DNA from: an uncultured bacterium
Lineage (GTDB): Bacteria; Hinthialibacterota; Hinthialibacteria; Hinthialibacterales; JAKPRU01
NCBI GenBank assembly: GCA_964612675.1
Contig: CAZTDD010000004.1
Location: 38,386 to 102,385, forward strand
Length of the DNA stretch: 64,000 nt
Direction: 5' to 3'
Shown: one piece after another, positions 242-36,837 of the stretch
Numbering within the stretch: the stretch's first letter is position 1
Layout: the number at the start of each line of letters is the position of its first letter
Notes under the pieces: model-generated
What the model saw: the letters and a program-made list of their open reading frames with translations, nothing else
Database searches by the model: none
What the model was told of the DNA's origin: nothing
Made by a program: the position numbers and the translations under genes

Positions 242-838
242 TTAGCGGAGGATGTCCTTTAAGTCAATTTCGATCCCGGGGAATCCTTGCGGCGAGATGG
301 TTCCCTCCTTGAACCGGCGTACGTCCTCGTAATCAGAACCTGAAGGACTCATGTAGATCTCTACGCACTTATCCTGAAGATTCACAAGCCAAACCTCCGG
401 AATTCCCGCCTTCGCATAAAGGGGAATCTTCACCTCGCGGTCATAACGAACCGAGGCATCCGCAACCTCAACGATAAGCAGGACATCTTCGGGGCAGGGA
501 TGCGACTCGGCGTAGAAATCATCGCGGGGCGTGAGTAGTGCAATATCCGGCTCCGGTTCGGAGTATTCGTCTAAGCGAACGGGTCCCTGAACGCGGACGA
601 TAGCCCGTCTGTCGAGGTGGAAAGAAAGGATTTGATTCAGTTGGTCCACGCATGCTCCGTGCCGGCTCCCGATCGGTGTCATCTGCACGATCTCCCCTTT
701 GATGAGTTCGACCCGGTCGTCTTCCGTCAAAATCCCCGAATCCGCCATCCGGTAATACTCGTCCACCGTGAACGCGCGTACCCGAGGTTCAGCCAACGTG
801 CCAGGTCCTCCGTATGGTTCCGCCTGCTTAATCGCCAT
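242..838 (-). CDS. Uma2 family endonuclease (DUF820, PD-(D/E)XK fold), tandem paralog 1 of 4
   Basis: 198-aa ORF. Carries motifs typical of Uma2/DUF820 restriction-endonuclease-like proteins: FTVDEYYRMADSGIL..DDRVELIxGEIVQMTPIGSRH and EVADASVRYDREVKIPLYAKAGIPEVWIVNL. Highly similar to the three adjacent ORFs, each separated by a 9-10 bp spacer. Confidence 0.75.
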   Translation of the reverse strand: MAIKQAEPYGGPGTLAEPRVRAFTVDEYYRMADSGILTEDDRVELIKGEIVQMTPIGSRHGACVDQLNQILSFHLDRRAIVRVQGPVRLDEYSEPEPDIALLTPRDDFYAESHPCPEDVLLIVEVADASVRYDREVKIPLYAKAGIPEVWLVNLQDKCVEIYMSPSGSDYEDVRRFKEGTISPQGFPGIEIDLKDILR

Positions 839-847
839 CTGTCCTCT

Positions 848-1447
848 TTACACCAGGATTTCTTCCACACGGATCTCCACTTCCGAAAACGCCGTGGGAG
901 AGAGTGACTGTCCTTTTCTCAATATAGAGGTTTCTTCATACCCGGATTCGACAGGATTTCTAAACATTTCAATGGTCTTATCCGGAAGATTGACAATCCA
1001 CACCTCCGGGATTCCCGCTTTCGCATACAGCGGGATTTTCACCTCCCGATCGTAACGCACCGAAGCGTCCGCGACCTCGATGATGAGCAAAACATCCTCG
1101 GGTCCGGGATGCGACTTGGCGTAGAAATCATCGCGCTCTTTGAGCACTGCGATGTCCGGCTCGGGCTCGGTGAACTCGTCCAAACGGATTGGATCCTGGA
1201 CACTTAGAATCTCCTCGCCCCCGATCATGTTGGTGAACACCTTAATGAGTTTCTTCACACATGCTGCGTGCCGGCTGCCGATCGGTGTCATCTGCACGAT
1301 CTCCCCTTCGATGAGTTCGACCCGGTCGTCATCCGTCAAGATACCCGAATCCGCCATTCGGTAGTATTCGTCCACCGAAAACGGCCGTCTTCGAGGTTCG
1401 ACCAATGTGCCGGGTTCTCCGTATGGTGCCGCCTGCTTAATCGCCAT
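848..1447 (-). CDS. Uma2 family endonuclease (DUF820), tandem paralog 2
   Basis: 199-aa ORF with the same conserved blocks as 242-838; family assignment is from motif recognition. Confidence 0.75.
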   Translation of the reverse strand: MAIKQAAPYGEPGTLVEPRRRPFSVDEYYRMADSGILTDDDRVELIEGEIVQMTPIGSRHAACVKKLIKVFTNMIGGEEILSVQDPIRLDEFTEPEPDIAVLKERDDFYAKSHPGPEDVLLIIEVADASVRYDREVKIPLYAKAGIPEVWIVNLPDKTIEMFRNPVESGYEETSILRKGQSLSPTAFSEVEIRVEEILV

Positions 1448-1456
1448 TTGTCTTCT

Positions 1457-2056
1457 TTACACCAGGATTTCTTCCACACGGATCTCCACTTCCGAGAATG
1501 CCGTGGGAGAGAGTGTGTCTCCTTTTCTGGAAATGCGGATCTTCTCATACTCGGACCCGCGAGGATTCCGATACACTTCAATGGTTTTATCCGGAAGATT
1601 GACAATCCACACCTCAGGAATTCCCGCTTTCGCATACAGCGGGATTTTCACCTCCCGATCGTAACGAACCGAAGCGTCCGCGACCTCGATGATGAGCAGG
1701 ACATCTTCGGATCCGGGATGCGACTCAGTATAGAAATCATTGCGTGCCCTGAGGATTGCGATATCCGGCTCGGGCTCGGAATAATCGTCGAGACGAACCG
1801 GGTTCTGACCGTTGAGAATTCCGTCATCGCCGATCATCTTGACGAATATTTTTGTGAGTCTCATAACACATCCCGCATGCCGACTCCCAATTGGTGTCAT
1901 TTGGACGATCTTCCCCTCGATAAGTTCGACCCGGTCGTCTTCCGTCAAAATGCCCGCGTCCGCCATCCGGTAATACTCGTCCACCGTGAACGCGCGTACT
2001 CGAGGTTCGGCCAACGTGCCGGGTCCTGCGTATGGTGTTGCTTGCTGAATCGCCAT
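1457..2056 (-). CDS. Uma2 family endonuclease (DUF820), tandem paralog 3
   Basis: 199-aa ORF with the same conserved blocks as 242-838. Confidence 0.75.
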   Translation of the reverse strand: MAIQQATPYAGPGTLAEPRVRAFTVDEYYRMADAGILTEDDRVELIEGKIVQMTPIGSRHAGCVMRLTKIFVKMIGDDGILNGQNPVRLDDYSEPEPDIAILRARNDFYTESHPGSEDVLLIIEVADASVRYDREVKIPLYAKAGIPEVWIVNLPDKTIEVYRNPRGSEYEKIRISRKGDTLSPTAFSEVEIRVEEILV

Positions 2057-2065
2057 CTGTGCTCT

Positions 2066-2662
2066 TTACACCAGGATCTCTTCCACACGGATCTCCAGTT
2101 CCGAAAACGCCGTGGGAGAAAGTGCCTGCCCTTTTCTCAATATAGAGGTTTCTTCATACCCGGATTCGACAGGATTTCTATACACTTCAATGGTTTTATC
2201 CGGAAGATTGACAATCCACACCTCAGGGATTCCCGCTTTCGCATACAGCGGGATTTTTACCTCCCGATCATAACGAACCGAGGCGTCCGCGACCTCGACA
2301 ACCAACAGCACGTCGCTCGGTCCGGGATGCGACTCGGCGTAAAAATCATCCCGGGGTTTAAGTAGAGAAATATCCGGCTCGGGCTCGGAGAATTCGTCTA
2401 ACCGTAATGGATTCTGGACGTAGACTATGGCTTGTTTACCGAGCCGAAGAACCAACGTCTCATTCAAGCGACTTACACATGCTGCGTGCCGGCTGCCGAT
2501 TGGTGTCATCTGCACGATCTTCCCCTCGATAAGTTCGACCCGGTCATTCTCGGTCAAGATGCCCGAATCCGCCATTCGGTAGTATTCATCCACCGTAAAA
2601 GGCCGTCTTTGGAGTTCGACCGACATCGTTGGTCCCTCGTCGCTTGTCTTTTTTACCTGCAC
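2066..2662 (-). CDS. Uma2 family endonuclease (DUF820), tandem paralog 4 (divergent N-terminus)
   Basis: 198-aa ORF. Same core motifs (FTVDEYYRMADSGIL, EVADASVRYDREVKIPLYAKAGIPEVWIVNL), but the N-terminal 20 aa differ from the other three copies. Confidence 0.7.
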   Translation of the reverse strand: MQVKKTSDEGPTMSVELQRRPFTVDEYYRMADSGILTENDRVELIEGKIVQMTPIGSRHAACVSRLNETLVLRLGKQAIVYVQNPLRLDEFSEPEPDISLLKPRDDFYAESHPGPSDVLLVVEVADASVRYDREVKIPLYAKAGIPEVWIVNLPDKTIEVYRNPVESGYEETSILRKGQALSPTAFSELEIRVEEILV

Positions 2663-3376: not shown

Positions 3377-3455
3377 CGCCCGGGAGTTCAACTCCCGAAC
3401 GAGCGCGTGAAGTGAGTGTTAAATGACGCTGGCCCGGGAGTTGAACTCCTGGGCC
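3377..3455. repeat. Two copies of a palindromic hairpin with core GGAGTT[C/G]AACTCC (3377-3401 and 3431-3455)
   Basis: Copy 1 reads cgcccgggagttcaactcccgaacg and copy 2 reads ggcccgggagttgaactcctgggcc. Both lie in the convergent intergenic region between the DUF2148 gene and the pilin-like gene. The same core recurs at 26220-26248 and 46552-46578. Confidence 0.6.
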
Positions 3456-3506
3456 GGTGTTGTCTACGATCCTGGACCGATAGGGGCTTCACTACATCGG
3501 AGTGGA

Positions 3507-4181
3507 TTACTCCATCAAGTTCCCCGGTCCGAAAATGGCGATATCGCCGATGCTGACCAGGCCGTTGCTGGGATCGTAACGGAAGGTGCAGTCATCTCCA
3601 TTGTCGCCGCAGAGACCGTTTGTGTTGACATTTGGCCCGAACGACTTCACAAGCCACTTTGTGGGGCAACCATCTCGCTGGGCCTTCGATATCGCAGCGC
3701 TTCTCAGCAGGAACGGCGGGAAATAAGCCCAATAATCCGCACAGTGCGCATCGCGGAGCCCCTGATTACCGCCAATATCGGGATCGGTAGAGCCGAGCAC
3801 ATATCGGTACCAAGAGACCGTTGCGTAGGGTCCGCCGCCCTGACGTCCACCGCTGCTCAAATCCCAGTTCGGAGGAAAGATATCCTGGGGCACGGAGGTC
3901 AAATAGGCGATCGGTGTAGTCAAAGCATTCAACTTAAACGCCGGCGCGTAATTGTTATGGTCCAAAAAGTACTGTTCTTGAGCAGTAGCGATCGCTCGAA
4001 GGTCCGATTTGACATGGGCGATCTTCGCTCGAAGCTGTGCGTTTAGGAAATTTGGCACCGCGATGGCCGCGAGAATGCCGATAATTGCGACCACGATCAA
4101 CAACTCAATCAAAGTGAAGCCTTTTCTACTCTTCATCATTTTGTCCGCCTGAATCAGGAATGGATTTGTCGGTCTCTTCAT
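3507..4181 (-). CDS. Prepilin-type N-terminal cleavage/methylation domain protein (type IV pilin / T2SS pseudopilin-like, DUF1559-like)
   Basis: Contains the canonical prepilin motif KGFTLIELLIVVAIIGILAAIAVP. The likely true start is the second or third Met at 4139/4136, which gives the short leader MKSRKG. Gly/Asn/Asp-rich C-terminal domain with Cys pairs. Confidence 0.75.
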   Translation of the reverse strand: MKRPTNPFLIQADKMMKSRKGFTLIELLIVVAIIGILAAIAVPNFLNAQLRAKIAHVKSDLRAIATAQEQYFLDHNNYAPAFKLNALTTPIAYLTSVPQDIFPPNWDLSSGGRQGGGPYATVSWYRYVLGSTDPDIGGNQGLRDAHCADYWAYFPPFLLRSAAISKAQRDGCPTKWLVKSFGPNVNTNGLCGDNGDDCTFRYDPSNGLVSIGDIAIFGPGNLME

Positions 4182-4384: not shown

Positions 4385-7300
4385 TTGATGAAATCTCTGA
4401 CTCTCGTATCTATCGTACTCCTTGCGGCCGTTGCATTGATAGCAACTGTGTTCTTCATATCCGGACCGGAGAAACAGGTCCAAGAGGTCAGCCAGGCCCT
4501 GGAATCCACCGCTGTTCCTGAACCGACCGCGAACGCGGAAGTAACTCCGGAAGCGCCACCCACGGCAACTCCCACTCCCGCCCCGGCTCTTTCCGGCTAT
4601 GTAATCGACACGTCTGGAGAGGCTCTAGCAGGTGTCGTCGTGAAAGCCAGCGGTACGGAAGAAGTGGCCCAGACCGGTACGGATGGGTATTTCCAATTCA
4701 TGGAGGTCGACGGCGTTACCGCCACCCTGCAGGTCAATCACGAACCGTATTTCCCGACAACTCTAAAGAGCCTCGATCTGCCTACCGGCGATGCACTGTT
4801 CGTCTTGTGCCGGGGAGCGAGCATTCGCGGGAGAGTCACCAACATGCTTTCCCGCCCACAAGCAGGGATTCAGGTCGAACGCCGTTCCGCATCGGGGAAT
4901 TGGCAGGGACCGGCACCGCTCTATGAAAAGGCTGCCGAAAACGGTCTGACCGATGCTGCGTGGCAGGAGATTATCGAGCGAATTCCGAAAGATGCGCTTC
5001 ATCAGATCTGCCTGCTCCAATTCTCAGAAGAGGAATCCACAAGCACCGATGAAGACGGGCGGTATACGCTGGAGGGGCTGCGGCAAGGCTTTTATCACAT
5101 TCGAATCCGACATGGAGATCTGGTCGCAGAACCTCACGAGCGGCTGGTCGTCGATTGGGAAGAGAACCTTGACGGTATCGACTTTCGGCTCACGGCAGGA
5201 CACCACATCCGAGGCAAAGCATTCGAAGCCAAATCCGAGGCCCCGGTTCCCGGAGTCACCGTGAGCCACTACATCAGCGGAGCCACCGCCGTCACGGGTC
5301 AAGACGGGACCTATGCCCTCGGCCCTCTGAACCGCGGAAAATATCAACTAAACATCAACACTCCTCCGGGCTATCTGGTCGCCGATCTTTCGTTCGGTCA
5401 GCAGGGACCCGAGGCAAATGTCATCAATCAAGACGTCGAGGGAATCGACATCAAACTGGAAAAGGCAGGCACTGTCCGAGGACGTGTTGTTGACAGCCAG
5501 GGAAAGGGAGTTGCGAAAGCCAGGGTCTCACTTGCACTGGAATCGATTAATCCAATGACCATGGGACCGACGATGATGCGGCTCGGGCGGTTGATGGAAG
5601 GGAAAGAAGCCGACTCCGAAGGGCGATTCGAATTGACCGGGATCTCAGAAGGGAAAGGATACATCCTTCATGCAGCTGCATCCGAATACCCTCCCGGGAA
5701 ATATGGACCGCTCGACCTGGGATACGGCGAAACGAAAGAAGATATCGAGATTGTGCTGCCGGAGAGTGGTTCCGTGTACGGAAAAGTCACCGATAAGGAA
5801 GGCGAACCTGTGCCGGACTATCATGTGGTGTGCATTTCCGGGGACAACTACTTTGCGTCACTCACCCAATTCGCAAACACAGAGTTGATAAAGAAGGCCG
5901 TTACCGATCAAGACGGCAAATACTCCATCGAGTATGTGGCCGCGGGCAAGAATATCGTAGTCGTATCCCGCCGGGATGTTCCGGGCTCGGGAGGTGGAAT
6001 TCCTCAGAATCAGCAAGTTGTCGAGGTGGCCGGTCCCACCGAGGTCAATTTCACCATCGAGGTTCCGAAACTCGATGGAACCATTAGCGGCCGGATCACC
6101 GATAGCAAAGGAGAACCCGCCCGGGAAGCCGTAGCGCTCGCGATGCACAAGAACATGATGATGGTCCAACAGGAGGGCGGAAGCCAAGAGGGGAGAGTGG
6201 ATGAAGACGGCCAATATAAGATCGAGAATCTCATTGAAGGCACTGAATACAATGTGATGGTGTTGCGGGCCAGAGGACCGGTGAATCCGGCTCAGTTGTT
6301 CTCGAATGCCGTCACGAAGACAGCGAAGGCGTCCTCGGAAAACGTTGATTTCACACTGCCCGGCGAAGGCTCGATCTCGGGCCGTGTGGTGTACGAACTC
6401 ACCGGACGCCCCGTTCCCTCGTTCAGCATCTCCGCCACACGAAAAAGCGAAAACAATCCCATGGGAGCTTTTATAGGCATGATCGAGGGCATGTTCGGCG
6501 GGAAAGAGAGTGACGAATTCAACAGCGCCGACGGGTCCTTCCTCCTTGAAGATCTGCTTGCCGGTACGTACACCCTCGCTGTGAACGGCGAAGGATTCGC
6601 CGCTACGACTGTCGATGGGATCGGTGTGATCGAGGACCAGACCACCGAAGACATCGTCATCGAAGTAGAAGGCGGAGGCGGAGTCGAGGGAATCGTCACC
6701 AATGCCGCTACGAAAGCGCCGATCGAAGGGGCTCTGGTTACCGCATATCCCGGCGGGACCAACAGTGTTTTCTCCTTGATGGGGATGAACCTACCCGACC
6801 CAAACAAAGTCGAAACCAAAACCGGTCCGGATGGGAAGTTCTCGTTCATGGGACTGGACGAAGGCCAGGTGTCGCTAGAGGCCAGCCATCCGGAATATGC
6901 CCCCGGATCGGTAGGACCGGTATTCGTATCCAGTGCGGGAACCCAGGAAGTAGACATTCCGTTGAGCCAGGGCGGACGCATCGAAGGTCACGTCTACGAT
7001 TCTGACGGAACCCCACAGCCCGGGATTCAAATCAACATTGTCTCGGTAAACGGCGAACAGAACATATCCACGACTGCAGACAATGAAGGATTCTATTCGA
7101 AAGACAACGTTCCACCGGGTCACTATGTTGTGACTTTCCCGTTCATGGACATTTTCACGAGCCAGCACAACGGCAGTATGCAAGGCGTCGGGGAAGTCCA
7201 AAACGGCCAAACGACGGTAATCGACATCGGAGGAGGCCAGGGTGTCACTGTCACGGGAATCGTCCAAAGCGCAGGCCGGCCGGTCCCCGGTGTCCAGGTG

Positions 7301-8383
7301 GTGTTTATTCGCGGTTCCGAAGTGAATTTCATTCTGCCCGGCGGGACGCTTGGGGAAACAACAACAAACCCCGATGGGACCTACCGTGTCTCCGGCCTTG
7401 ACGGCGGACCGGCGAAGATCCTCATCGTCCGGATGAACGACCTAATGGCCGGACGGCCTCCGATGACGCTCCATCGCCAGGAGGTGGAACTGCCGCAAAG
7501 CGGCGAGATTCAAATCGATGTTCAGCTGCAGCTTTTGCCGCTCGGCGGCACGGTTCGCGACGCGGAAACCGGCGAACCGATCGCCGATGCGATGCTGATG
7601 ATGTTCCGCGATTTCAGCGGCGGTGAACGAACACCGTTCGAACTGCGGCCCGGCGGCGAAGGGGGAATCGGTACGGGGCAAGTCACGACCGGCGAGGACG
7701 GAAGGTATCTGTTTGAAGAAGTTGCCCCGGGAGAGTATGTCTTATCGTGCCGGGCGCAGGGGTACGGCCAACAGAGCATCGAAATCCGCGTAGAAGCCCA
7801 GCCCACCGGTGAGGTGGATATTCAAATGCCGAAGCAGGTCGGTGAGGTGTCAGGCCGCATCACCGACCGCCAGACAGGCCGGGCGGTTCAAGGCGCCATC
7901 GTCTATTTGATCGACCAGCACGGCCAAATGGTCATGCCCGCGGGTCTCGGCCCTATGGGCATGATGACCGACGAAGGCGGCCATTTCAAAATCGACAGCG
8001 TTGCCCCGGGTGTATATGCGCTGCTCGCAGGCGATCCCATGACGAATGCCTATGGCTGGACACGGATCGACGGTGTGGTCGCACAGGCGGGGGAAGTGAC
8101 GGACTTGGAGATTGAACTGCAGCGTGGTGCGTCGGTAGCGATCGGTCTTATGGATCCACAGGGGCAGCCGCTTATGGGGGCGGAGTGGCAGCTGTTCGAT
8201 GACCGGGGCACCTCAATGGCAGGGCAGACCATGGAGATCGGGAATACGCTACGGACGTCATTGGCTCCGGGACAGTATACGGCCCGTGCCGAGCTGCGTG
8301 GATTTCAATCCGTGGAATTTCCATTCACGATTGAAGAAGGACAGGCCAGTTTCGAGCAGGCGATTACAACCCAGCCGATGTAA
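4385..8383 (+). CDS. Giant (1332 aa) secreted or membrane-anchored protein with more than 10 carboxypeptidase-regulatory-like (CarbopepD_reg / transthyretin-like) beta-sandwich repeats
   Basis: N-terminal hydrophobic anchor LTLVSIVLLAAVALIATVFFI followed by a Pro/Thr/Ala linker. Many ~80-aa modules carry the recurring G.V.D..G.P..GA.V / DGxYxxxxLxxGxY signature. Confidence 0.6.
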   Translation: MMKSLTLVSIVLLAAVALIATVFFISGPEKQVQEVSQALESTAVPEPTANAEVTPEAPPTATPTPAPALSGYVIDTSGEALAGVVVKASGTEEVAQTGTDGYFQFMEVDGVTATLQVNHEPYFPTTLKSLDLPTGDALFVLCRGASIRGRVTNMLSRPQAGIQVERRSASGNWQGPAPLYEKAAENGLTDAAWQEIIERIPKDALHQICLLQFSEEESTSTDEDGRYTLEGLRQGFYHIRIRHGDLVAEPHERLVVDWEENLDGIDFRLTAGHHIRGKAFEAKSEAPVPGVTVSHYISGATAVTGQDGTYALGPLNRGKYQLNINTPPGYLVADLSFGQQGPEANVINQDVEGIDIKLEKAGTVRGRVVDSQGKGVAKARVSLALESINPMTMGPTMMRLGRLMEGKEADSEGRFELTGISEGKGYILHAAASEYPPGKYGPLDLGYGETKEDIEIVLPESGSVYGKVTDKEGEPVPDYHVVCISGDNYFASLTQFANTELIKKAVTDQDGKYSIEYVAAGKNIVVVSRRDVPGSGGGIPQNQQVVEVAGPTEVNFTIEVPKLDGTISGRITDSKGEPAREAVALAMHKNMMMVQQEGGSQEGRVDEDGQYKIENLIEGTEYNVMVLRARGPVNPAQLFSNAVTKTAKASSENVDFTLPGEGSISGRVVYELTGRPVPSFSISATRKSENNPMGAFIGMIEGMFGGKESDEFNSADGSFLLEDLLAGTYTLAVNGEGFAATTVDGIGVIEDQTTEDIVIEVEGGGGVEGIVTNAATKAPIEGALVTAYPGGTNSVFSLMGMNLPDPNKVETKTGPDGKFSFMGLDEGQVSLEASHPEYAPGSVGPVFVSSAGTQEVDIPLSQGGRIEGHVYDSDGTPQPGIQINIVSVNGEQNISTTADNEGFYSKDNVPPGHYVVTFPFMDIFTSQHNGSMQGVGEVQNGQTTVIDIGGGQGVTVTGIVQSAGRPVPGVQVVFIRGSEVNFILPGGTLGETTTNPDGTYRVSGLDGGPAKILIVRMNDLMAGRPPMTLHRQEVELPQSGEIQIDVQLQLLPLGGTVRDAETGEPIADAMLMMFRDFSGGERTPFELRPGGEGGIGTGQVTTGEDGRYLFEEVAPGEYVLSCRAQGYGQQSIEIRVEAQPTGEVDIQMPKQVGEVSGRITDRQTGRAVQGAIVYLIDQHGQMVMPAGLGPMGMMTDEGGHFKIDSVAPGVYALLAGDPMTNAYGWTRIDGVVAQAGEVTDLEIELQRGASVAIGLMDPQGQPLMGAEWQLFDDRGTSMAGQTMEIGNTLRTSLAPGQYTARAELRGFQSVEFPFTIEEGQASFEQAITTQPM

Positions 8384-8390
8384 GGTATGA

Positions 8391-8661
8391 GGGGGTCGCA
8401 AAAAGTCGAAAGTTGGCATCGGAAGTTCCCTCTCCCCCCGGGAGAGGGTTAGGGTGAGGGGCGTTAATTGCATCGGGTTCGATCATTATGACTAGCCTGT
8501 GTATTCGTCAGAGACAGCAAATGAATCAGCGGCAAAGGGTTTGGATGATGACAGGGGTCTGCCACAGACAAAGGAATGTCAGCGGATAATGCAACGTGCC
8601 CTCACCCCGGCCCTCTCCCAGAGGGAGAGGGAGAAGAGTTCTCGCGACTTTTTGCGACGGC
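8391..8661. repeat. Inverted pair of MITE-like repeat copies (A 8391-8463, B 8596-8661) of repeat family 1
   Basis: Copy A is ggtcgcaaaaagtcg...ggaagttccctctccccccgggagagggttagggtgaggg. Copy B is its reverse complement, ccctcaccccggccctctcccagagggagagggagaagagttctcgcgactttttgcgacggc. A third copy lies at 46927-47018. Each copy has an internal ctctccc-N-gggagag palindrome and terminal gtcgcaaaaagtc inverted repeats. Confidence 0.7.
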
Positions 8662-8680
8662 ATCAGGTATGAGGGTGGTG

Positions 8681-9004
8681 TTATCCCTGCAACCAGCTGC
8701 GGATCACCGCGGCAACGTCTTCAGGATTGGATCGACTGAAGTCGCGGACGTACTTCTCCATCTTGAGACGGCGTTGCTGATCGGCGGGAAGGGAGGCAAT
8801 CTCGTCAAAATCCGTGATGCCGAGTTCGGACAGCGTCAATTCACGTTGTGACACGACGGGTTCGGCTTCTTCCAGTTCCTCGCCGAATCCTTCCCGGTCA
8901 GATACCTGTTTCGGCCGGAAATCCCGGCAGGCCATGATATAGCCCGCAATACAGAACGTGGACAGCCCAACGACAATTGTTGCCGTGTTGATCAGTTCTT
9001 CCAT
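8681..9004 (-). CDS. Small membrane protein resembling the C-terminal TM2 plus FliG-binding tail of the flagellar MS-ring protein FliF (orphan fragment)
   Basis: 107 aa with one TM helix (TATIVVGLSTFCIAGYIMA) and an acidic cytoplasmic tail ending NPEDVAAVIRSWLQG. This resembles the conserved FliF C-terminus (D-P-x-V-A-x-V-I-R-x-W-M/L). No FliF N-terminal region is present upstream. The assignment rests on motif similarity only. Confidence 0.35.
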   Translation of the reverse strand: MEELINTATIVVGLSTFCIAGYIMACRDFRPKQVSDREGFGEELEEAEPVVSQRELTLSELGITDFDEIASLPADQQRRLKMEKYVRDFSRSNPEDVAAVIRSWLQG

Positions 9005-9271
9005 ATCGCCATTCCCACAAGCAGTTTACACGTGCATCGAGTGGAGTCGGATTCGCAGTTTCCACCGAACACTCACCTATATAGTACCGATGAATGACAT
9101 CCATCGCAACAATTCCGGCACGCCATGGACTTGACGCTGTTAGCCCTCGGAGTCAAGATAGTTTTGCTATTGACATGGAATTCTACGCTGATATCAAAAT
9201 CTTTGGATATCTCTCTTCGGCAAGGCCGCCCGGAAGCAACTAGAGATACCCACCATCGACTCTGTAACTAA

Positions 9272-10171
9272 ATGGCCGAACGATCCCCATATAATCTCTG
9301 TTTCTGCGGCTCGCTCGATCCTCCAACCAGGTACGAGGACTCGCGTTTTGTGGTCGTCCCGATTCCATACGACCACACGTGCACATACGGCACCGGTGCT
9401 CGTTTCGGCCCGCGTGCCATTCTCGAAGCCTCTGCGAACATCGAGTTGTACGACGAGTTCCTGGACTGCGAACCGTACCGCGCCGGCATCTGGACTCACG
9501 AATCGGTGGAACCGGTGGTCACCGGCCCAAAAGAGATGACCGAACGCGTGCGCTCGCTGATAGCGGGGCTTCTCGATGAGGGAAAAACCCCAGTCCTTTT
9601 GGGGGGAGAGCACAGCATTTCTCTCGGAGCGGTGGAGGCGTGTCGCCGGAAAGAACCGTCTCTCTCCGTTCTTGTTATCGATGCACACGCGGATCTTCGA
9701 CCCGAATACCAGGGGAGTCCTTACAGCCATGCGTGCGTACAAAGGCGTTTTCTGGATTTCGGTTGTTCGGTGGTCCAAATCGGGGTCCGAAGTCTTTCCG
9801 GGGAAGAGGCGAAGTACCGAAAAACCGTGCCGAGACTAGCAAGTCTAAGCGTCCAGGATTATCGTGAGATGATGCGAACGGATCCGGAGGATTTCCGTTC
9901 GATCCTCGGAGAGCATTTGACGGATAAGATTTATCTCAGTATCGATTTGGACGGTCTCGATCCGTCGATCATGCCGGCGACCGGTACACCGGAACCGGGT
10001 GGATTGCTCTGGGAAGAGATTACGGAAATTCTGACACAGGTTTGGCGGCGAGGGAGTATCGTCGGGGCGGATATTGTGGAATTGGAACCGATTCCAGGAA
10101 TGCGAGCCCCGGATGTACTCGCAGCCCGACTCACCTATCGGTTGATGGGCCTCGTCGCAGCAAAGAAATAA
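9272..10171 (+). CDS. speB: Agmatinase / ureohydrolase (arginase family)
   Basis: 299 aa. Arginase-family Mn-binding signatures are present: GGEHSIS, VLVIDAHADLRP and LSIDLDGLDPS. The N-terminal TYGTGARFGPRAI block is typical of agmatinases. Confidence 0.85.
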   Translation: MAERSPYNLCFCGSLDPPTRYEDSRFVVVPIPYDHTCTYGTGARFGPRAILEASANIELYDEFLDCEPYRAGIWTHESVEPVVTGPKEMTERVRSLIAGLLDEGKTPVLLGGEHSISLGAVEACRRKEPSLSVLVIDAHADLRPEYQGSPYSHACVQRRFLDFGCSVVQIGVRSLSGEEAKYRKTVPRLASLSVQDYREMMRTDPEDFRSILGEHLTDKIYLSIDLDGLDPSIMPATGTPEPGGLLWEEITEILTQVWRRGSIVGADIVELEPIPGMRAPDVLAARLTYRLMGLVAAKK

Positions 10172-10195: not shown

Positions 10196-10759
10196 ATGGA
10201 CACCATTGGAAAACTCGTTCCGAGAAGAATGTTTTTGACAAAAGGCGTCGGCTGGCACAAAGAAGAGCTGCGCTCGTTCGAGATGGCGCTACGCGGCGCG
10301 GGGATCGAAAAATGTAACCTGGTGAATGTTTCGAGTATTCTCCCGCCGGGCTGCAAGATCATTCCCACGGACAAAGGAATCAAAGAACTCGTTCCGGGCC
10401 AGATCACCTATTGTGTGATGGCACGTTGTTCAACCAATGAGCCCCGCCGGAAATTGGCGGCCTCGATCGGTGTCGCGATCCCGCGAGCCAAAGGGACGTA
10501 CGGTTATCTGAGCGAACACCACGCCTTCGGGCAGTCCAAGCAGGAAGCGGGCGATTACGCCGAAGATTTGGCGGCGGCCATGCTCGCTACCACACTCGGT
10601 ATCGAATTCGATGAAGACAGCTCGTGGGACGAGAAGGAAGAGGTGTACCGCCTGTCAGGGAAAATCGTTGGCAGCAAAAACATCACTTCGGTAGCCGTGA
10701 ACAAACCCGGTGGATATACGACGGTGGTTGCGGCAGCCATTTTCTTGTTGGAACCCTAG
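10196..10759 (+). CDS. pdaD: Pyruvoyl-dependent arginine decarboxylase (PdaD/AaxB family)
   Basis: 187 aa. FEMALRGAGIEKCNLVNVSSILPPGCKIIP aligns with the archaeal PdaD self-cleavage region (..NVNLIRISS|IMPP..) and keeps the Ser-Ser processing site. It starts 25 bp downstream of speB on the same strand, making a putrescine pathway pair. Confidence 0.8.
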   Translation: MDTIGKLVPRRMFLTKGVGWHKEELRSFEMALRGAGIEKCNLVNVSSILPPGCKIIPTDKGIKELVPGQITYCVMARCSTNEPRRKLAASIGVAIPRAKGTYGYLSEHHAFGQSKQEAGDYAEDLAAAMLATTLGIEFDEDSSWDEKEEVYRLSGKIVGSKNITSVAVNKPGGYTTVVAAAIFLLEP

Positions 10760-10807: not shown

Positions 10808-10940
10808 CAATGTCACGAAGCCGAGTCATCCGCGAGAGAATGCCGGGAGCGCGAGTCTCCCGACGAACCGAAGAGAACAGAAAGACTCGGCTCAGCAGGA
10901 GCTTCGCCCTCCCACGACCAGCCCACGTCAGCCTAACGTG
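10808..10940. repeat. Degenerate copy of hairpin repeat family 2
   Basis: The right arm cggctcagcaggagcttcgccctccc (10888-10913) is a perfect family-2 arm. The left arm cgggagcgcgagtctcccgacgaaccg (10844-10870) is degenerate. The flank caatgtcacgaag is related to the family TIR caatgtcattaagtt. Lies in the convergent gap after pdaD. Confidence 0.5.
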
Positions 10941-10964: not shown

Positions 10965-12320
10965 TCATGCGTTCCGGCAGCCGGGCCGGACATACAAAGA
11001 CGAAAACTCCTCGGTAGTAAGGATGTCCCGGTCAAGCAGCTCCAAGCCTGTTTTTACCCGGACCGATTCGGCACGCGCCGCCCCAAGTTCATCCAGCTTA
11101 CGGTGGGGGCTGAACTCGTGGCGACATAGAACGGGGATCCCGTGAAGCGACAGTTCCAGGTTCCGTAGCCACTCGATCATTCTCTTCGCATTTTCCTGCA
11201 CCGTCCGTGCGTGATTGGTCAACAGCTGGTATTGCGCTGTTCCCCAGGATTCGGTGGTTCCCCAATTCCTTCCCAGCATAAACGGCGCGAGATGAAGGGC
11301 CGAAATGACCTGTTCGCTGATCGCCTGCAGACTTTCCTGCCAGCGTGTCCTACTCCCCGTCGGACCGATGTAGTCCACCTCGATATTGTCGAACGTAATG
11401 AAGTTGCTGTCGGGCTTTTTCTCTCTGAGCCGGTCTCGGATTTCGTTGAATTCTCTCGCGGTTCGTTCGTTGTACGCGGATGGCGACTCACCGGGCCGTA
11501 GAGAACCGGGAGTGTACTTCACATGAAGCGTGGGGTAGCCCGCGTTGTGTGAAGCGCGTGCAATATCGATGACCATCTGTTGTTGAATCCTGGCGATGAG
11601 AGGCACCGCCAAGAGCGGGGAGCGGCCGTACGGTGAGTCGCCTTCCGCATCGAGTCCGTAATAGAAGAATGACCCGGGATTCAGCTGAATCGTTGTTCCA
11701 TTGGGGAGAAGTTGGAAGGGCAGCAACCGGCGCTCGCGCTGCGTCCGTCGAAATCGAATCATAGCCGGATCGATGATATAAAACTTGTCGATCCGCTTGC
11801 GGTTATTCGACAGAACAACCTCCCCCGCAAAAGCCCCATAGGTGAATACGGAAAGGAAGAAGGAGCCAACAAGAGCCTGCATCCCCTGGCCTTTTACGTG
11901 TGTGAATTCGTGGATACGTTCGTCGAGATCTGCGAGGATCTGCCTGGCATGGTGGAGGTCGCTCTGGGAGCCGCCGTCGAAGTGGAGGCTTTGCGGTGTG
12001 TTACAGAGCCGAACCCACGCCCACACGCCCGCCGACACGTCCGGTATACGGTCGCGCAGATAACGCAGGACCGGATATAGGACGGAAGGATCGGGCTCCT
12101 GGACCGGTATCATTCCCGGTTCGGAGAGTGTTCCGGACGGTGGAAAAGGACTACTTGTGGCGGCGAGCGGATGCGTAGGCAACTGGTTGGGATCTGCGAC
12201 AGTGTCGAGAACACGGCTGGGTGGATGAGAATTCGACCGGCGCCGAAAGATGCGGGGTAGTGGATTCCACATGGCAGCTCCTGAGTGTAAAAAAAGCGTG
12301 ATTCCGAAGAGTCCCTTCAA
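10965..12320 (-). CDS. Hypothetical protein (451 aa), no firm family; weak portal-protein-like motifs
   Basis: Long ORF with good coding texture and a Pro-rich N-terminal region. The C-terminal blocks YYGLDAEGDSPYGRSPLLAVPLIA and SALHLAPFMLGRNWGT are reminiscent of HK97-type portal proteins, but this is a guess. No other phage genes lie nearby. Confidence 0.45.
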   Translation of the reverse strand: MKGLFGITLFLHSGAAMWNPLPRIFRRRSNSHPPSRVLDTVADPNQLPTHPLAATSSPFPPSGTLSEPGMIPVQEPDPSVLYPVLRYLRDRIPDVSAGVWAWVRLCNTPQSLHFDGGSQSDLHHARQILADLDERIHEFTHVKGQGMQALVGSFFLSVFTYGAFAGEVVLSNNRKRIDKFYIIDPAMIRFRRTQRERRLLPFQLLPNGTTIQLNPGSFFYYGLDAEGDSPYGRSPLLAVPLIARIQQQMVIDIARASHNAGYPTLHVKYTPGSLRPGESPSAYNERTAREFNEIRDRLREKKPDSNFITFDNIEVDYIGPTGSRTRWQESLQAISEQVISALHLAPFMLGRNWGTTESWGTAQYQLLTNHARTVQENAKRMIEWLRNLELSLHGIPVLCRHEFSPHRKLDELGAARAESVRVKTGLELLDRDILTTEEFSSLYVRPGCRNA

Positions 12321-18062: not shown

Positions 18063-19940
18063 CTACTCGTGGTGATTCTGAGCATCCCGGGCCGGATTAT
18101 GAAGCATTTCTCCAAATACTGTACACGCTTTGTGGATTTCGCTGAAATAATGTACATACCGCCGAAGCAATTCCACCTGCGATGCGGGATTGGGATGAAA
18201 TGTGAAATAGTCCGGCGCGCGAATCGTGACAAAAAGCCGTTCCAGAGCCAATTCGAGGATTTGGTAAAGCCGGAACCCCTCTTCGATCTGTTCGCGAACG
18301 GCCCTGAATTCCTGCAGCAGGCGGGAAAGCTGTTCGGGTTGCATGTCGCCGGAGAGTGAAGAAACCGCGCCGAGTTGCTTTTTGGCATGCGAGCCTACCC
18401 GTTCGACAACGGTTGCCAGATCTTCAAACAGTCCTTCGGGAATCGCCGGTGTAGGGATGGTCGAGATCCTTTCCACAACCTGCCAGGGATTGAAGGAAAC
18501 GGTCAAATACGTATCGATGGTCTCTCGAAGCGACAGGATCTGTGTTCCCTGTATCCATGCGCCTCCCTCGGTCGCATCTATACAGTGGACCTCCGTTTCC
18601 GCCAACAGATTCTCCAAGTAGCGAATAGATTCAAAAAACGCCGCACTGGTGGAGACAGTCGTTCCGTCAACGGAGGCTACGGAAATGGAGTCTACTTCCT
18701 CATGGAAATCACCGTCCGCCTCCGGGCGACGGTAGTCGATCTTCCCGGTACTGGTCCGCATCACCTCGGCCTGAAGGGCAGACCCGCTCGCGTGGCTTTT
18801 TCCTTGCGGTGGAAACGCCAGATCAAGTCCGACGAAGATGATGGGCGTACAGCCCATCACGCGGGCGAGATGAAACGCGGCCAGCGCAACATTCTGGCTG
18901 AACGGAAGAATGTCCTCTTGTTTCAGTTCGCGGCCCGGCAGTTGCTCGTGGAGGCCTCGACAGCGGTGTGGCAGGAAAATGGAAGGATTTCGGAACCTGT
19001 TCGCCAGAGCCGGAGTGATCTGAGGGTCGAAAACAAACACCGTCCGGCCCAGGTCGTCGATCCCTTCAAAATGACGGGCATTCAGCTCCGACGGATCTTT
19101 TGTAACGACAAATTGGGGTTCCACACCTTTTCGACGAAGCAATTGGAATGAAGTATCGCAAGCGAAAACAGCTGCCCGGCCCGTGATGTCCGGTATCAGG
19201 TCGATGTTCTTGTCGAGCGACGGTCCCGCGGCGACAATCAACGCGGGGTTTCCGGACAAGAGGTTTTTCACAGACGACGGCGGAACGGATCGGTACAGTT
19301 TGGGCACATTGCGGAGGATATGTTCCTGCGTGTGATAGCCCGTGGACTCCATGTGAGCCAACATGTTTTTGCCGGCTTCCGCCAGCCGTGAGATCTCGTG
19401 TTGGACCTCCTGGAGTTCATTCGGGCAGACCTGCGTTGCCGCGGGAAGAGCCTGAAAGTGGAAGCCGGTGGACAGAAACTCGCCCATTCGCCTGAATAGC
19501 GTCTGATAAAGCGCATGTGCGGGTTCAGCGCAAATAAGATCCACTGCTGCATTGTTGAACAACGGTCGCAGATCGACATGCTCCAGAGCAGCCCGGAAAA
19601 CATCGGCACGGGGTTCAAAAACACAGAGATAATCCCGGCGAGCTGTAGACAGGAGGGCCAAGGCCTGATAACCAAGCCCGAGTCCGAACAGTACTATGCG
19701 GCTCGACTCCCGGTTCTCAGGCGCGTTCGCCCAGCGTTCCGCTTCCTTGCGGGGGTCGTTCCTGCTGTGATAGAGCACAGTTCGACCGGAGGCGGCGGGG
19801 ACTTCCAGCGTGGGCGTCCCGGAGGGAGTCGTCTGAACGGTTACCGAGTCTGGAGAGGGCTCGTTCTCGAATCGAGCGGCGAGGGTGGGGTGGCGCTGAC
19901 GGAGCGCCTGTAGATTTGTCTGGAAGAACGACTTGACCAC
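18063..19940 (-). CDS. Motility-associated factor (Maf) family glycosyltransferase (DUF115 / MptE-like), paralog 1
   Basis: 625 aa. The N-terminus FFQTNLQALRQRHPTLAARF, the central PALIVAAGPSLDKNIDLI...AVFACDTSF Rossmann-like core and IIFVGLDLAFP are hallmarks of DUF115 Maf proteins, which in other bacteria transfer nonulosonic acids to flagellin. Paralogous to 32441-34375. Confidence 0.7.
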   Translation of the reverse strand: MVKSFFQTNLQALRQRHPTLAARFENEPSPDSVTVQTTPSGTPTLEVPAASGRTVLYHSRNDPRKEAERWANAPENRESSRIVLFGLGLGYQALALLSTARRDYLCVFEPRADVFRAALEHVDLRPLFNNAAVDLICAEPAHALYQTLFRRMGEFLSTGFHFQALPAATQVCPNELQEVQHEISRLAEAGKNMLAHMESTGYHTQEHILRNVPKLYRSVPPSSVKNLLSGNPALIVAAGPSLDKNIDLIPDITGRAAVFACDTSFQLLRRKGVEPQFVVTKDPSELNARHFEGIDDLGRTVFVFDPQITPALANRFRNPSIFLPHRCRGLHEQLPGRELKQEDILPFSQNVALAAFHLARVMGCTPIIFVGLDLAFPPQGKSHASGSALQAEVMRTSTGKIDYRRPEADGDFHEEVDSISVASVDGTTVSTSAAFFESIRYLENLLAETEVHCIDATEGGAWIQGTQILSLRETIDTYLTVSFNPWQVVERISTIPTPAIPEGLFEDLATVVERVGSHAKKQLGAVSSLSGDMQPEQLSRLLQEFRAVREQIEEGFRLYQILELALERLFVTIRAPDYFTFHPNPASQVELLRRYVHYFSEIHKACTVFGEMLHNPARDAQNHHE

Positions 19941-25210: not shown

Positions 25211-26251
25211 TCACAGCCCTTTCAACTCCGTAATGATTCGTTCGGCTGCGAGACTGTCTTCCTGTGGACGGCTCTCCAGAGCCTTTGCGTTTATTCCCAC
25301 AGGCGCCCAAACATGAGGATCGGTCGAACGAAACACGGCGAGTGTTGGACAACCGAGAGCGGCGGCCAAATGAGTGATCCCACTATCATTCCCCACGTAC
25401 ATAGACATCTTTCGGAGTACAGCCGCGATATCCATCAGGGGGCGATTGTGAATCGATCTTGGATTCAATTCGTTGACGGCTGCGCACAGATCGATTCCCA
25501 GTCGTTCCTCCTCTGCACCGGCCAATACGGCAACTCGGATGAAACGCTCCCGCGCAAGCCCGTGAAGAACATCGGCCCAGACGGGAATCGGTAAACGCTT
25601 TTCCGCTTTGCTTGCTCCTGGATGGATGGCGATCCAGGGGGATTGTCGCTCCGGCGCTCCCAGTAGATTCTCCAGGTCCTCAGGGAGTCTCGCCGAAATC
25701 TGTAGCGAAGGTACCTTGAGCGGTCTTGCGATTCCTAACTGGTTCAACGGTTCAAACAAATGGTCGATGACGTGCTGGTCTTCGGATGGACGTGGTGAAT
25801 GGACAACAACTTGACCAGGGCAGAGGTCAGTCAGGTTTCGAGTCAGCTGTCCGTCGCGGTCTTCTCCATACCAGAGAATAAGCGCTGCGGAAGCGAAGAG
25901 GTCGCGCACCTCTGCGGAGAGCGACGGACTCGGGCCGTACAGCGTATGAATCCCAGGCAGTTCAAAACTCATTGCGCGAGAGGCAAATGAAGGACCAACA
26001 AGCAGAGAGACACGTTCGTATTGTCCGAGTATAACGATTTCGCGATGTGGAAAGTGGTTTCGGAATGCGTGGATTACCGGTGCAAGGAGAATGGTATCTC
26101 CGATTGCTCCGTTTCGAATGACGAGAATATGCCCCCGTTCTTGCATAATCCGATATCTGCCATTGAAGGTAGCAGCGGCTCCCTGAACCGGGCAGAGAAG
26201 GCTGTGGTAGGAAGAGTAACTGGTCCAGGAGTTGAACTCCTGGACCAGCAT
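25211..26251 (-). CDS. Glycosyltransferase family 9 (LPS heptosyltransferase-like)
   Basis: ILVIRNGAIGDTILLAPVI matches the GT9 N-terminal ILIIRxxxxGDxxLxxP motif. The C-terminal GNDSGITHLAAALGCPTLAVF matches GxDSGxxHLAAAxGxPxVxLF. The true start is probably the Met at 26146 (MQERGHILVIR), because the palindromic repeat at 26220-26248 lies upstream of it. Confidence 0.75.
   Translation of the reverse strand: MLVQEFNSWTSYSSYHSLLCPVQGAAATFNGRYRIMQERGHILVIRNGAIGDTILLAPVIHAFRNHFPHREIVILGQYERVSLLVGPSFASRAMSFELPGIHTLYGPSPSLSAEVRDLFASAALILWYGEDRDGQLTRNLTDLCPGQVVVHSPRPSEDQHVIDHLFEPLNQLGIARPLKVPSLQISARLPEDLENLLGAPERQSPWIAIHPGASKAEKRLPIPVWADVLHGLARERFIRVAVLAGAEEERLGIDLCAAVNELNPRSIHNRPLMDIAAVLRKMSMYVGNDSGITHLAAALGCPTLAVFRSTDPHVWAPVGINAKALESRPQEDSLAAERIITELKGL
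26220..26248. repeat. Perfect 14-bp-arm palindrome ctggtccaggagtt-g-aactcctggaccag (GGAGTTGAACTCC core family)
   Basis: Read directly. It sits between the stop of the 669-aa gene and the probable GT9 start, so it is a terminator- or operator-like hairpin. Confidence 0.6.
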
Positions 26252-34375: not shown

Positions 34376-34388
34376 TTGAATTGTTGTC

Positions 34389-35207
34389 TCACGGAGGTGG
34401 CATCACCTCTCCAATAGGGGCGTCGCGAGCGGGGTTGTCCGGAATCTCGAGTTCCCCTTCGATTGTCTCGCTTTCGAACGCCTCCAGGAGGACAATGGAG
34501 ACTCGCCGATTGAGTTGACGACCGTACGGCGTGTCATTTGGCGCGCGAGGGTGATTGGGACCCAGAGATTCCATGCTCAATCGATCGTGATCGATACGCA
34601 ATTCCGGGTTCGGATTCGTCTCTAGGTATTTCAATACATTGTACGCTCGCGCAGCGGCCAAATCGAAATTGTCTTTGTAAAAATGCGGTTGTCCTTCATT
34701 CCACACATTGTCCGTGTGACCCTCAATGCGAATCCGATTTGTAAAATCCGAAAGGATTTCCGCGAGCGGATCCAGCACAGCTTGGGCCGAAGCAGGGGGG
34801 ATCTCCGCACTCCCGGAGCGGAACAACACGTCATCCTGCACATCGAACCGGATACCTTCTTCGACCCCACGGATTTGGACTTGGTGGGTCTGCTCAACGG
34901 ATACCAACTTCTCCTTTGCCCGTTCCGCGATCGCTTCTTTCACCCGCTCGATAACTCGTTCATCCATCGTGGGCTCGGATTTCTGGGGCGTCATATTGAC
35001 AGGAGGAATGAACGACATATTGAACAGGTTCGGTACCCGTCCAAACGCCCCCTTGATAAACGCGATGGTCTGGACGAACTTTTTCTCCTCGATCGTCGAC
35101 ATCGCGAAGAGCAGAACGAAGAAACAGAGGAGCAGAGACATCATGTCCGAGAAGGTGCACATCCACTCGGGCGCTCCGCCGGATTGTTCTTCTTCTTTGG
35201 GTGGCAT
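34389..35207 (-). CDS. motB: Flagellar motor stator protein MotB (OmpA-like C-terminal domain), paralog 1
   Basis: GAPEWMCTFSDMMSLLLCFFVLLFAMS matches the MotB TM/plug region (..W.VTYADM.TLLLAFFV.L.A). The C-terminus has an OmpA-like peptidoglycan-binding block (RIRIEGHTDN...AAARAYNVLKYL...NRRVSIVL). Confidence 0.8.
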   Translation of the reverse strand: MPPKEEEQSGGAPEWMCTFSDMMSLLLCFFVLLFAMSTIEEKKFVQTIAFIKGAFGRVPNLFNMSFIPPVNMTPQKSEPTMDERVIERVKEAIAERAKEKLVSVEQTHQVQIRGVEEGIRFDVQDDVLFRSGSAEIPPASAQAVLDPLAEILSDFTNRIRIEGHTDNVWNEGQPHFYKDNFDLAAARAYNVLKYLETNPNPELRIDHDRLSMESLGPNHPRAPNDTPYGRQLNRRVSIVLLEAFESETIEGELEIPDNPARDAPIGEVMPPP

Positions 35208-35226
35208 GACTGTCCGCCTCTTTTAC

Positions 35227-36835: not shown

Positions 36836-36837
36836 GG

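Follow-up and report, generated by a model that had tools for sequence, protein, structure and literature searches.

Introduction

The C-terminal tail of full-length FliF co-folds with FliG's N-terminal domain, fastening the flagellar C-ring to the MS-ring. The present study concerns a free-standing gene from an uncultured bacterium of the GTDB phylum Hinthialibacterota, the 107-residue product of which (MEELINTATIVVGLSTFCIAGYIMACRDFRPKQVSDREGFGEELEEAEPVVSQRELTLSELGITDFDEIASLPADQQRRLKMEKYVRDFSRSNPEDVAAVIRSWLQG) resembles just this tail together with the transmembrane (TM) helix preceding it. The gene, designated here mini-FliF-C, occupies positions 8681–9004 on the reverse strand of a 64,000-nucleotide stretch of DNA (contig CAZTDD010000004.1 of the assembly GCA_964612675.1), which was analysed as a whole and is referred to hereafter as the window. 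A preliminary description of the locus had seen in this open reading frame (ORF) the scar of a rearrangement mediated by adjacent repeats or, alternatively, a neo-functionalised mini-protein able to titrate FliG.

The closest described system is the complex of the C-terminal part of FliF (FliF_C) with the FliG N-terminal domain (FliG_N), represented by the PDB entries 5TDY and 5WUJ, the two partners of which co-fold and are tightly tethered (PMC6079021, PMC11087270). The last 36 residues of T. maritima FliF are given as two hinged helical segments co-folding with FliG_N (PMC6079021) and two FliF helices are described for the H. pylori complex (PMC8956890); in the cryo-electron microscopy structure of the Salmonella C-ring, FliF residues 514–560 wrap around and contact the domain D1 of FliG, every C-terminal residue being ordered (PMC11087270). 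The mini-FliF-C protein is like FliF_C in the order of its parts—a TM helix, an acidic linker and two hinged helices—as well as in its terminal helix of the type P..vA.vI(K/R).WL, in its 45% identity over 100 residues to Omnitrophota FliF and in ending where FliF ends. It differs from FliF in being a separate 107-residue gene product without the first TM helix (TM1) and the periplasmic ring-building domains, and therefore cannot form an MS-ring; moreover, its gene lies apart from the flgB-fliE-fliF-fliG cluster, and it evolves faster than the FliF tail.

Concerning the small accessory proteins, FlgV (the BB0268 family and FlgV of Campylobacterota) is likewise small, is located in the inner membrane and has a cytoplasmic tail and an actual or proposed role at the FliF/FliG interface. 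It has been reported to form an extra ring between the MS- and C-rings (PMC10655999, PMC11607428), and the BB0268 family is known from bacteria of the Planctomycetota–Verrucomicrobiota–Chlamydiota (PVC) group, including Omnitrophota (PMC11607428). Its two TM helices, an intramembrane arginine or GFFxG motif, and a gene placed inside flagellar superoperons (PMC11607428, PMC10655999) were, however, not found for mini-FliF-C, which has one TM helix, homology to FliF itself and non-flagellar neighbours. The SwrB protein of Bacillus subtilis crosses the membrane once, has its C-terminal domain in the cytoplasm and has been proposed to act on the FliF–FliG rotor surface in basal-body maturation (10.1101/2021.04.30.442225). 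It counts 167 residues and has no reported resemblance to FliF; by layout and putative target it can be likened to mini-FliF-C.

The nearest evolutionary analogy is probably FlhX, a stand-alone, soluble copy of the C-terminal domain from the export-gate component FlhB that exists alongside the intact parent gene; there, too, a C-terminal module has become a free gene, although the parent is not the MS-ring protein and the product is not membrane-anchored. To our knowledge, the known regulators, such as YcgR and EpsE, act on the middle and C-terminal domains of FliG, on FliM/FliN or on the stators. In the literature, neither a description of stand-alone FliF tails nor a natural, separately encoded protein competing for the site at which FliG binds FliF was found.

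Relationship to the C-terminus of FliF

When 1.84 billion cluster representatives were searched exhaustively by phmmer with the mini-FliF-C protein, 34 proteins were obtained (the proteins and loci of relatives are numbered below with the prefixes P and L, respectively). Seven of them—P0008, P0011, P0013, P0027, P0030, P0032 and P0033—are proteins of 510–549 residues aligned at their extreme C-terminus, and all seven possess both PF01514 and PF08345, which identifies them as genuine FliF. The E-values of these alignments range from 2.8e-17 to 1e-6, the best one covering residues 435–535 of the 535 in P0008 (45% identity over ~100 residues), followed by P0011 (1.4e-14) and P0013 (2.0e-13). The original reading of the ORF as a TM helix plus the FliG-binding tail of FliF was thus borne out.

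Scanned against Pfam, the mini-FliF-C protein gave no match even at E ≤ 10, the ring-building domains PF01514 and PF08345 being both missing from it. This negative result is to be expected and does not refute the homology, because PF08345 ends before the second TM helix (TM2): in the seven FliF proteins its end falls at about residue 400–417 (near 415 in P0008), i.e. before the region matched by mini-FliF-C. In Salmonella FliF, PF08345 corresponds to the periplasmic residues 253–437 and the cytoplasmic C-terminal segment to residues 470–554 (PMC6079021). An alignment to PF08345, suggested previously as a check, is therefore misleading, since this family covers the periplasmic part only; more generally, Pfam-based checks for FliF are blind to its cytoplasmic tail.

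A weak independent support came from NCBIfam, where positions 497–552 of the 555 in the fliF model TIGR00206 were matched at E = 0.034. With the corresponding 13.1 bits, as compared with the curated equivalog cut-off of 129.75 bits, the protein is, judged from its sequence, a paralogue of one FliF module and not FliF itself. Family profiles compared with the PDB had as their best matches the C-termini of FliF from three organisms—residues 466–556 of 560 in the Salmonella entry 6scn, two other FliF entries and a FliF–FliG fusion—all aligned at the terminal helix; each of these matches is non-significant alone (E = 0.07–0.3), but they are mutually consistent. One such alignment to a PDB FliF covers its residues 472–556 of 560. 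A tblastn search of the 64-kb window with full-length FliF yielded a single match at 8992–8684 (E = 5e-22; FliF residues 436–535) and no N-terminal or other FliF segment, in agreement with the earlier statement that none lies upstream of the ORF.

Protein architecture

The AlphaFold2 (AF2) model, calculated on 27 family members, has a mean predicted local distance difference test score (pLDDT) of 77.7. Residues 2–28 (8921–9001, reverse strand) form a TM helix (pLDDT 90–98; hydropathy peak at residues 5–26) followed by the juxtamembrane motif GY..A..DF(R/K)PK, and this helix aligns with TM2 of the Omnitrophota FliF, GLGYMFFQRAFAPKP. The predicted topology is N-out/C-in, as for TM2 of FliF, with E2 and E3 preceding the helix and R27, R30 and K32 following it. 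The acidic and mostly disordered linker of residues 29–73 (8786–8920, reverse strand; pLDDT 48–62) consists in the model of a low-confidence acidic stretch (29–65) and a short helix (66–70); its conserved motif EP..S.REL(T/S)L.ELG(I/L) is common to the mini-FliF-C proteins and the Omnitrophota FliF.

The remaining residues 74–106 (8687–8785, reverse strand) are modelled as two helices, 74–92 and 94–106 (pLDDT 81–91), hinged at the invariant Pro94 (..QQRRLKMEKYVRDFSRS-NPEDVAAVIRSWLQ). They align to residues ~509–556 of Salmonella FliF and are, by this alignment, the putative equivalent of the FliF_C segment that wraps the domain 1 of FliG. The whole layout, i.e. TM helix, disordered linker and two hinged helices, agrees with the published architecture of FliF_C (PMC6079021, PMC8956890, PMC11087270).

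Family, conservation and selection

Two clades can be recognized. In clade A, to which the window belongs, all seven aligned proteins (that of the window and P0001–P0006) are full-length, counting 107–110 residues and aligning end-to-end; orthologues of the same length occur in at least seven lineages, with the start, the stop and the upstream region conserved. The wider family comprises ~25 stand-alone relatives of 91–136 residues, each representing a 50%-identity cluster and having the same layout. A word-indexed protein search with the 27-member profile gave 11 proteins, a figure which opened the genomic contexts of clade B and is not a measure of family size. In the NCBI records the family members are called "hypothetical protein", the family being unnamed and without a Pfam match.

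Among 27 divergent members, the positions L61, G62, Q77, P94, G21, A25, D28, F29, P31, A98, W104 and L105 are invariant or nearly so, those located in the tail being common to the FliF tails of distant phyla, e.g. that of Salmonella (..NDPRVVALVIRQWMS). Of the residues that FliF tails have in common across phyla, P94, A98, I101, R/K102, W104 and L105 are nearly invariant in these members, as are the motifs QRR.KM and ELG, which occur also in the FliF of PVC bacteria. The C-terminus of TIGR00206 was matched individually by eight of the 27 members, and no other family recurs as often.

The ratio of non-synonymous to synonymous substitutions (dN/dS, Nei–Gojobori) of the window gene is 0.058 against L031 (dS 0.32), 0.13 against L002, and 0.18–0.21 against L001, L005 and L006. 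The gene is thus under strong purifying selection, with dN/dS of 0.06–0.2. When the same two metagenome-assembled genomes (MAGs) are compared, the identity amounts to 81% for the mini-FliF-C tail and to 90% for that of FliF; the mini-FliF-C gene is constrained, albeit less so than FliF. In a rough neighbour-joining tree, clade A adjoins the Omnitrophota FliF tails and the divergent clade B is located on a separate branch, a topology that hints at a derivation of the family from an fliF of the Omnitrophota type.

It should be mentioned that one relative, P0035 (229 residues), combines a FliF-like tail (...ELGLGEFGDISSLPWEEQRRLVMQEYVIDYMANNPEKSASIFKAWLNS) with a hydrophobic N-terminal region of ~170 residues without a Pfam match. 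This region is apparently polytopic, so the tail occurs also fused to another membrane anchor. In the very long proteins P0025 (2450 residues) and P0040 (2135 residues), the linker of mini-FliF-C was matched in 6–11 repeated stretches, which were taken as compositional.

Coexistence with complete FliF

A genome scan, with one genome per species, revealed 26 loci, mostly from MAGs titled Candidatus Omnitrophota or unclassified "bacterium". At these loci, three stand-alone mini-FliF-C genes (L005, L006 and L007) and 20 full-length FliF of 526–544 residues were found, the remaining ones being a FliF of 439 residues 5'-truncated by the contig end (L025), an Omnitrophota-type tail in a frame of 90 residues (L024) and a divergent FliF of 538 residues from Candidatus Thermofontivivens (L030); the patterns used miss the divergent clade B, and the ratio of mini-FliF-C to fliF among the 26 loci is not to be read as a frequency. 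The tail of the Omnitrophota-type FliF is strongly conserved (...IPIEPVTE.RELTL.QLGL.EFGDIASLPAEEQRRLKMQEHVINYA.EKPEEVAAIIKAWLS).

Three Candidatus Omnitrophota MAGs, relatives of the window, contain a mini-FliF-C gene along with an intact fliF having its own tail. These are JAKQSI01, in which L006 is accompanied by the 535-residue FliF encoded in L011, with small rod genes before it and fliG after it; DAOMHQ01, with L007 and the fliF-fliG pair of L008; and CAYVAZ01, with the clade-B gene of L039 and the fliF of L016, again followed by fliG. In these relatives the true fliF is found in the canonical order flgB-flgC-fliE-fliF-fliG, outside of which the mini-FliF-C gene sits. The mini-FliF-C gene is therefore a paralogue coexisting with a complete FliF, and neither a scar nor one part of a split gene.

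As a separate observation, an ORF resembling only the C-terminal domain of FliG was seen right after fliF in L010 (5332–5754) and right after fliG in L022 (7359–7751). With 29–35% identity to FliG residues ~190–330, it may represent either a paralogue confined to this domain or a very divergent FliG.

Genomic context and possible function

In the window, the mini-FliF-C gene has as its convergent neighbour a gene for a 1332-residue protein (4385–8383, forward strand), the homologue of which in L002 contains CarboxypepD_reg repeats. On the other side it is flanked by the divergent genes for an agmatinase/arginase-family protein (9272–10171) and a pyruvoyl arginine decarboxylase (10196–10759), both on the forward strand, and this synteny is kept in orthologues down to 52% identity. 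The block of motility genes at 32441–43768 (maf, two motB, motA, flgE, flgD and fliK) is 23.4 kb away, as noted already in the preliminary description, though a second Maf homologue (18063–19940) lies at a distance of 9 kb. In view of its motAB, flgE, flgD, fliK and two maf genes, the organism probably possesses flagella. Searched by tblastn with FliG and the clade-B proteins, the window contained neither fliG nor a second mini-FliF-C gene.

With regard to the relatives, clade A genes are found next to speB (e.g. in the window, L002 and L035) or upstream of a 150-residue single-domain response regulator (L001 and L006), and three clade-B genes, coming from different lineages, are all immediately upstream of purF. 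Even the 52%-identical orthologue P0006 retains the synteny with speB, the pyruvoyl arginine decarboxylase gene (PvlArgDC) and a Mu-portal-like gene. A hidden FliG paralogue beside mini-FliF-C was also considered; the 343-residue product of the upstream gene in L001, however, neither contains a Pfam domain nor resembles FliG. The Mu-portal-like gene itself (PF06074, E = 9e-6) is a lone one that adjoins the arginine decarboxylase/agmatinase pair in the orthologous loci (window 10965–12320, reverse strand; L002 2471–3775; L035 1974–3275), with no other phage genes evident, and may be a domesticated or relic portal.

That the ORF is a functional FliF-tail paralogue can be taken as nearly certain. 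As far as its partner is concerned, the balance tips slightly towards binding of FliG by the mini-FliF-C protein, while a role as a decoy is a tentative suggestion, less likely than not. The mechanism favoured here would start with an Omnitrophota-type fliF whose 3' end was duplicated, giving rise to a free-standing gene whose product would retain only TM2, the acidic linker and the two-helix tail of FliF. Such a protein would insert N-out/C-in into the inner membrane; its tail would be cytoplasmic and may bind FliG_N away from the MS-ring. The consequence would be a stoichiometric buffering or sequestration of FliG, which might set the timing or the number of completed rotors; a stoichiometric sink appears to be the simplest solution because FliF_C and FliG_N are co-folded and tightly bound. 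Taken as a whole, the picture of a membrane-anchored FliF-tail paralogue that would bind FliG_N and buffer or sequester it has about equal chances of being right or wrong, and whether the effect would be inhibitory or assisting is something we can only infer. In the preliminary description the mini-protein had been the second choice; it is the one preferred now, with the titration of FliG retained as a conjecture.

Several observations speak against an involvement with FliG. The mini-FliF-C gene never adjoins flagellar genes. Upstream of the members of the family there is no convincing sigma-28 or sigma-54 site, the sole sigma-28-like matches being those in L001 (three mismatches, 156–222 nt upstream), and only a weak sigma-70-like promoter can be proposed, so that co-regulation with the flagellar regulon is not indicated. 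This candidate, TTGCGA-17 nt-TACTAT (9081–9109, reverse strand), read from the sequence ~75 nt upstream of the ATG, is identical in L031 and has the counterpart TTGCGA-17-TAGAAT at the same relative position in L002; it scores below the threshold in a consensus promoter/terminator scan of 8300–9350, which gave nothing, and an Rfam scan of 8200–9400 delivered only chance matches below threshold. Furthermore, there are systematic differences from the FliF tails, e.g. at the positions 87 (I→R), 102 (K→R) and 103 (A→S) and, as A→D, in the juxtamembrane motif, and therefore the partner could have changed. A Foldseek comparison of the AF2 monomer with the PDB was uninformative, with chance-level matches only (best E = 3.6), since the fold of a TM helix and a helical hairpin, taken apart from the partner, does not lend itself to such a search.

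According to the first of the rival explanations, the tail would now address a different helical or armadillo-like domain, or else a regulator, e.g. the adjacent response regulator, the protein serving as a neo-functionalised anchor outside motility. The variable non-flagellar neighbours (speB, the response regulator and, in three clade-B lineages, purF), the evolution faster than that of the FliF tails, the consistent substitutions relative to FliF and the occurrence of the tail as a portable, fused module in P0035 would all fit such a scenario. On the other hand, the near-invariant residues are those conserved in the FliF tails of distant phyla, fliF and fliG are also present in all three genomes checked, and no candidate for an alternative partner was found, the upstream neighbour in L001 being not FliG-like; the retargeting is considered unlikely.

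A positive assembly factor is a rather improbable alternative, too. The protein would either pre-fold or hold FliG_N at the membrane and pass it to nascent MS-rings, or join the rotor through packing of its TM helix against the TM helices of FliF, adding FliG attachment points in a manner similar to the extra ring of FlgV. The resemblance of the TM helix and juxtamembrane motif to TM2 of FliF, the existence of small membrane accessory proteins at the MS/C junction, such as FlgV (PMC10655999, PMC11607428) and SwrB (10.1101/2021.04.30.442225), and the requirement of FliF_C for the folding of FliG_N (PMC6079021) are in its favour; the tight FliF_C–FliG_N tether (PMC11087270), however, makes a hand-over unlikely, a flagellar gene neighbourhood is absent from the mini-FliF-C loci, and the same evidence fits the decoy equally well.

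Insertion downstream of the gene

The 297 bp between the convergent stop codons of the 1332-residue gene and mini-FliF-C contain both arms of an inverted repeat. The preliminary description had reported these as two inverted copies of a repeat downstream of the ORF and, in its heading, as bracketing it. The arms proved to be real and both are located 3' of the ORF, which they consequently do not bracket; rather than two copies, they form the opposite ends of one insertion resembling a miniature inverted-repeat transposable element (MITE). This insertion of 272 bp (8394–8665) has arms of ~70 bp (8394–8463 and 8596–8665) around a unique interior of 132 bp (8464–8595), the arms pairing at 85% (8427–8460 with 8599–8632) and 86% (8388–8408 with 8645–8665). 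It is non-coding, with only short overlapping ORFs of 33–91 residues consisting of repeat sequence, and one long hairpin is the fold obtained for the 297-nt region (-128.5 kcal/mol, z = -5.8).

On both sides the element is bordered by the target-site duplication GGTATGAGGG, which can be read from the sequence at 8384–8393 (11 bp if A8383 is counted) and at 8666–8675, directly outside the termini GTCGCAAAAAGTCG (8395–8408) and CGACTTTTTGCGAC (8645–8658). The stop codon of the 1332-residue gene abuts the insertion. Deletion of 8394–8675 leaves TAA-ggtatgagggtggtg-TTA, i.e. a spacer of 15 bp between the convergent stops, and this reconstructed spacer aligns with the empty site present in the 96%-identical L031, where a 13-bp spacer, TGA-gatgggagtggaa-TTA, contains no repeat. 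In the 82%-identical relative L002, the convergent gene of which encodes 1328 residues, as well as in L003 and L004, the same spacer holds an MNT/HEPN toxin–antitoxin pair (L002 6091–6791). The spacer between mini-FliF-C and its convergent neighbour is thus a recurrent insertion site, occupied by the MITE-like element in the window, by MNT/HEPN in L002–L004 and by nothing in L031. The insertion is recent and postdates the mini-FliF-C gene, without having a bearing on the origin of the latter.

The idea that the gene is a scar, i.e. a decaying 3' remnant of an fliF cut by recombination at the repeat element, had its grounds in the presence of only the C-terminal ~100 residues of FliF and in the repeat element adjoining the ORF. 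It can be practically abandoned: the family is a stand-alone one with same-length orthologues in at least seven lineages and dN/dS of 0.06–0.2, the closest orthologue L031 is free of any repeat, the repeats lie 3' of the gene whereas the truncation would be expected at its 5' end, the insertion is bordered by a target-site duplication of its own, and an intact fliF exists elsewhere in the relatives. Equally hard to credit is a split FliF with the FliG-binding tail encoded apart from a tail-less main protein, for which nothing speaks beyond the existence of a separate gene, as TM2 and the tail (...QRRLKMQEHVINYA.EKPEEVAAIIKAWLS) are conserved in all 21 Omnitrophota-type FliF recovered as full-length ORFs or with a 5' truncation at a contig end, including those of the three MAGs with mini-FliF-C; in the relatives this explanation was rejected.

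Within the window, the arm motif CCCTCTCCC-N3-GGGAGAGGG occurs twice (zero expected) and GTCGCAAAAAGTCG with up to two mismatches five times (0.74 expected). The elements with termini in the 64 kb are two, the second family member, identified by blastn-short, being the 94-bp element at 46925–47018, which has both termini (GTCGCAAAAAGTC / GACTTTTTGCCGC), one core and a flanking 11-bp direct repeat, CGTCAAGATAG, at 46914–46924 and 47019–47029. A metagenome scan with the 18-nt terminus ATGCCGTCGCAAAAAGTC gave 27 chance-like matches, none with the repeat core, and no cognate transposase for the element was found. Three independent short-read assemblies of the identical gene end 67 bp past its stop, inside the right arm, which is what an element that is repeated or palindromic would bring about.

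The 35-nt GC-rich palindromic core, CCCTCACCCC..CCCTCTCCC..GGGAGAGGG, recurs alone, i.e. without the GTCGCAAAAAGTC termini, in intergenic positions of at least eight other Omnitrophota loci. Its lone copies include those 28 bp after the mini-FliF-C gene in L001 (1597–1631) and L007 (304–338), between flagellar genes in L008 (3961–3994) and L011 (3952–3987), and between fliF and fliG in L028 (6240–6274). It looks like a phylum-wide element that behaves as a unit of the repetitive extragenic palindromic (REP) type. Like the known MITE and REP-like palindromes, the insertion is short and non-coding, has terminal inverted repeats and a duplication of 10–11 bp, and is placed between convergent genes. 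In this respect the result is an ordinary one; it documents an element that was inserted recently, the clean empty site corresponding to it, and a REP-like core widespread between the genes of Omnitrophota.

A repeat nest at 58741–59060 is bounded by GTGGCAAAAAGCCG ... GTACTTTTTACCGC, which resemble the termini of the above family. Within it lies another repeat family, CGGCTCAGCAGGAGCTTCGCCCTCCC plus ACTTAACTTAATGACATT, present at four sites of the window (also at 10888–10917, 55780–55855 and 57460–57489).

Other features of the window

Some further features deserve a brief mention. The Maf-type glycosyltransferase paralogues are located at 18063–19940 and 32441–34375, the latter followed by the two motB, motA, flgE, flgD and fliK at 34389–43768. 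Within this block, two tandem MotB paralogues (272 and 273 residues) sharing a 108-nt stretch of 84% identity come after one MotA (34389–36835, reverse strand), and the hook protein FlgE (37224–40307, reverse strand) is unusually long, counting 1027 residues. Inside the fliK-like gene at 41207–43768, an imperfect 18-nt tandem repeat with units of the GGACTCCGCTGATTTTGC type (42065–42202) gives rise to a short peptide repeat in the hook-length control protein.

At 242–2662 (reverse strand) there are four tandem paralogues of 198–199 residues with an exact 609-bp period and 72–90% DNA identity, the first of which to be scanned was found to be a putative restriction endonuclease of the Uma2 family (PF05685, E = 1e-34). 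A near-palindromic motif of 30–36 nt (CTGGTCCAGGAGTTGAACTCCTGGACCAG) is present three times (3427–3462, 26220–26249 and 46547–46582), two of its copies being at the 5' ends of the ORFs 3423–4046 (forward strand) and 25211–26251 (reverse strand).

Conclusions

The mini-FliF-C family appears to be a variant in flagellar biology that has not been described before, by which an unnamed family of a poorly understood, uncultivated phylum gains a testable annotation. The contact it may concern is that of FliF_C with FliG_N, the single mechanical link from the membrane ring to the torque-generating switch complex and an early checkpoint of assembly. A broader hypothesis, which must be regarded as doubtful, is that the free-standing, membrane-anchored FliF tails of Omnitrophota would form an overlooked class of flagellar regulators, compete stoichiometrically with the MS-ring for FliG and in this way switch, by titration, the assembly of the C-ring or the number of flagella, the tail being a portable FliG-recruiting module that could be grafted onto other membrane proteins, such as P0035. 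If the binding of FliG is true, the family would stand for a new regulatory principle, i.e. the decoy of a structural docking peptide, and would provide a ready-made natural peptide inhibitor of rotor assembly.

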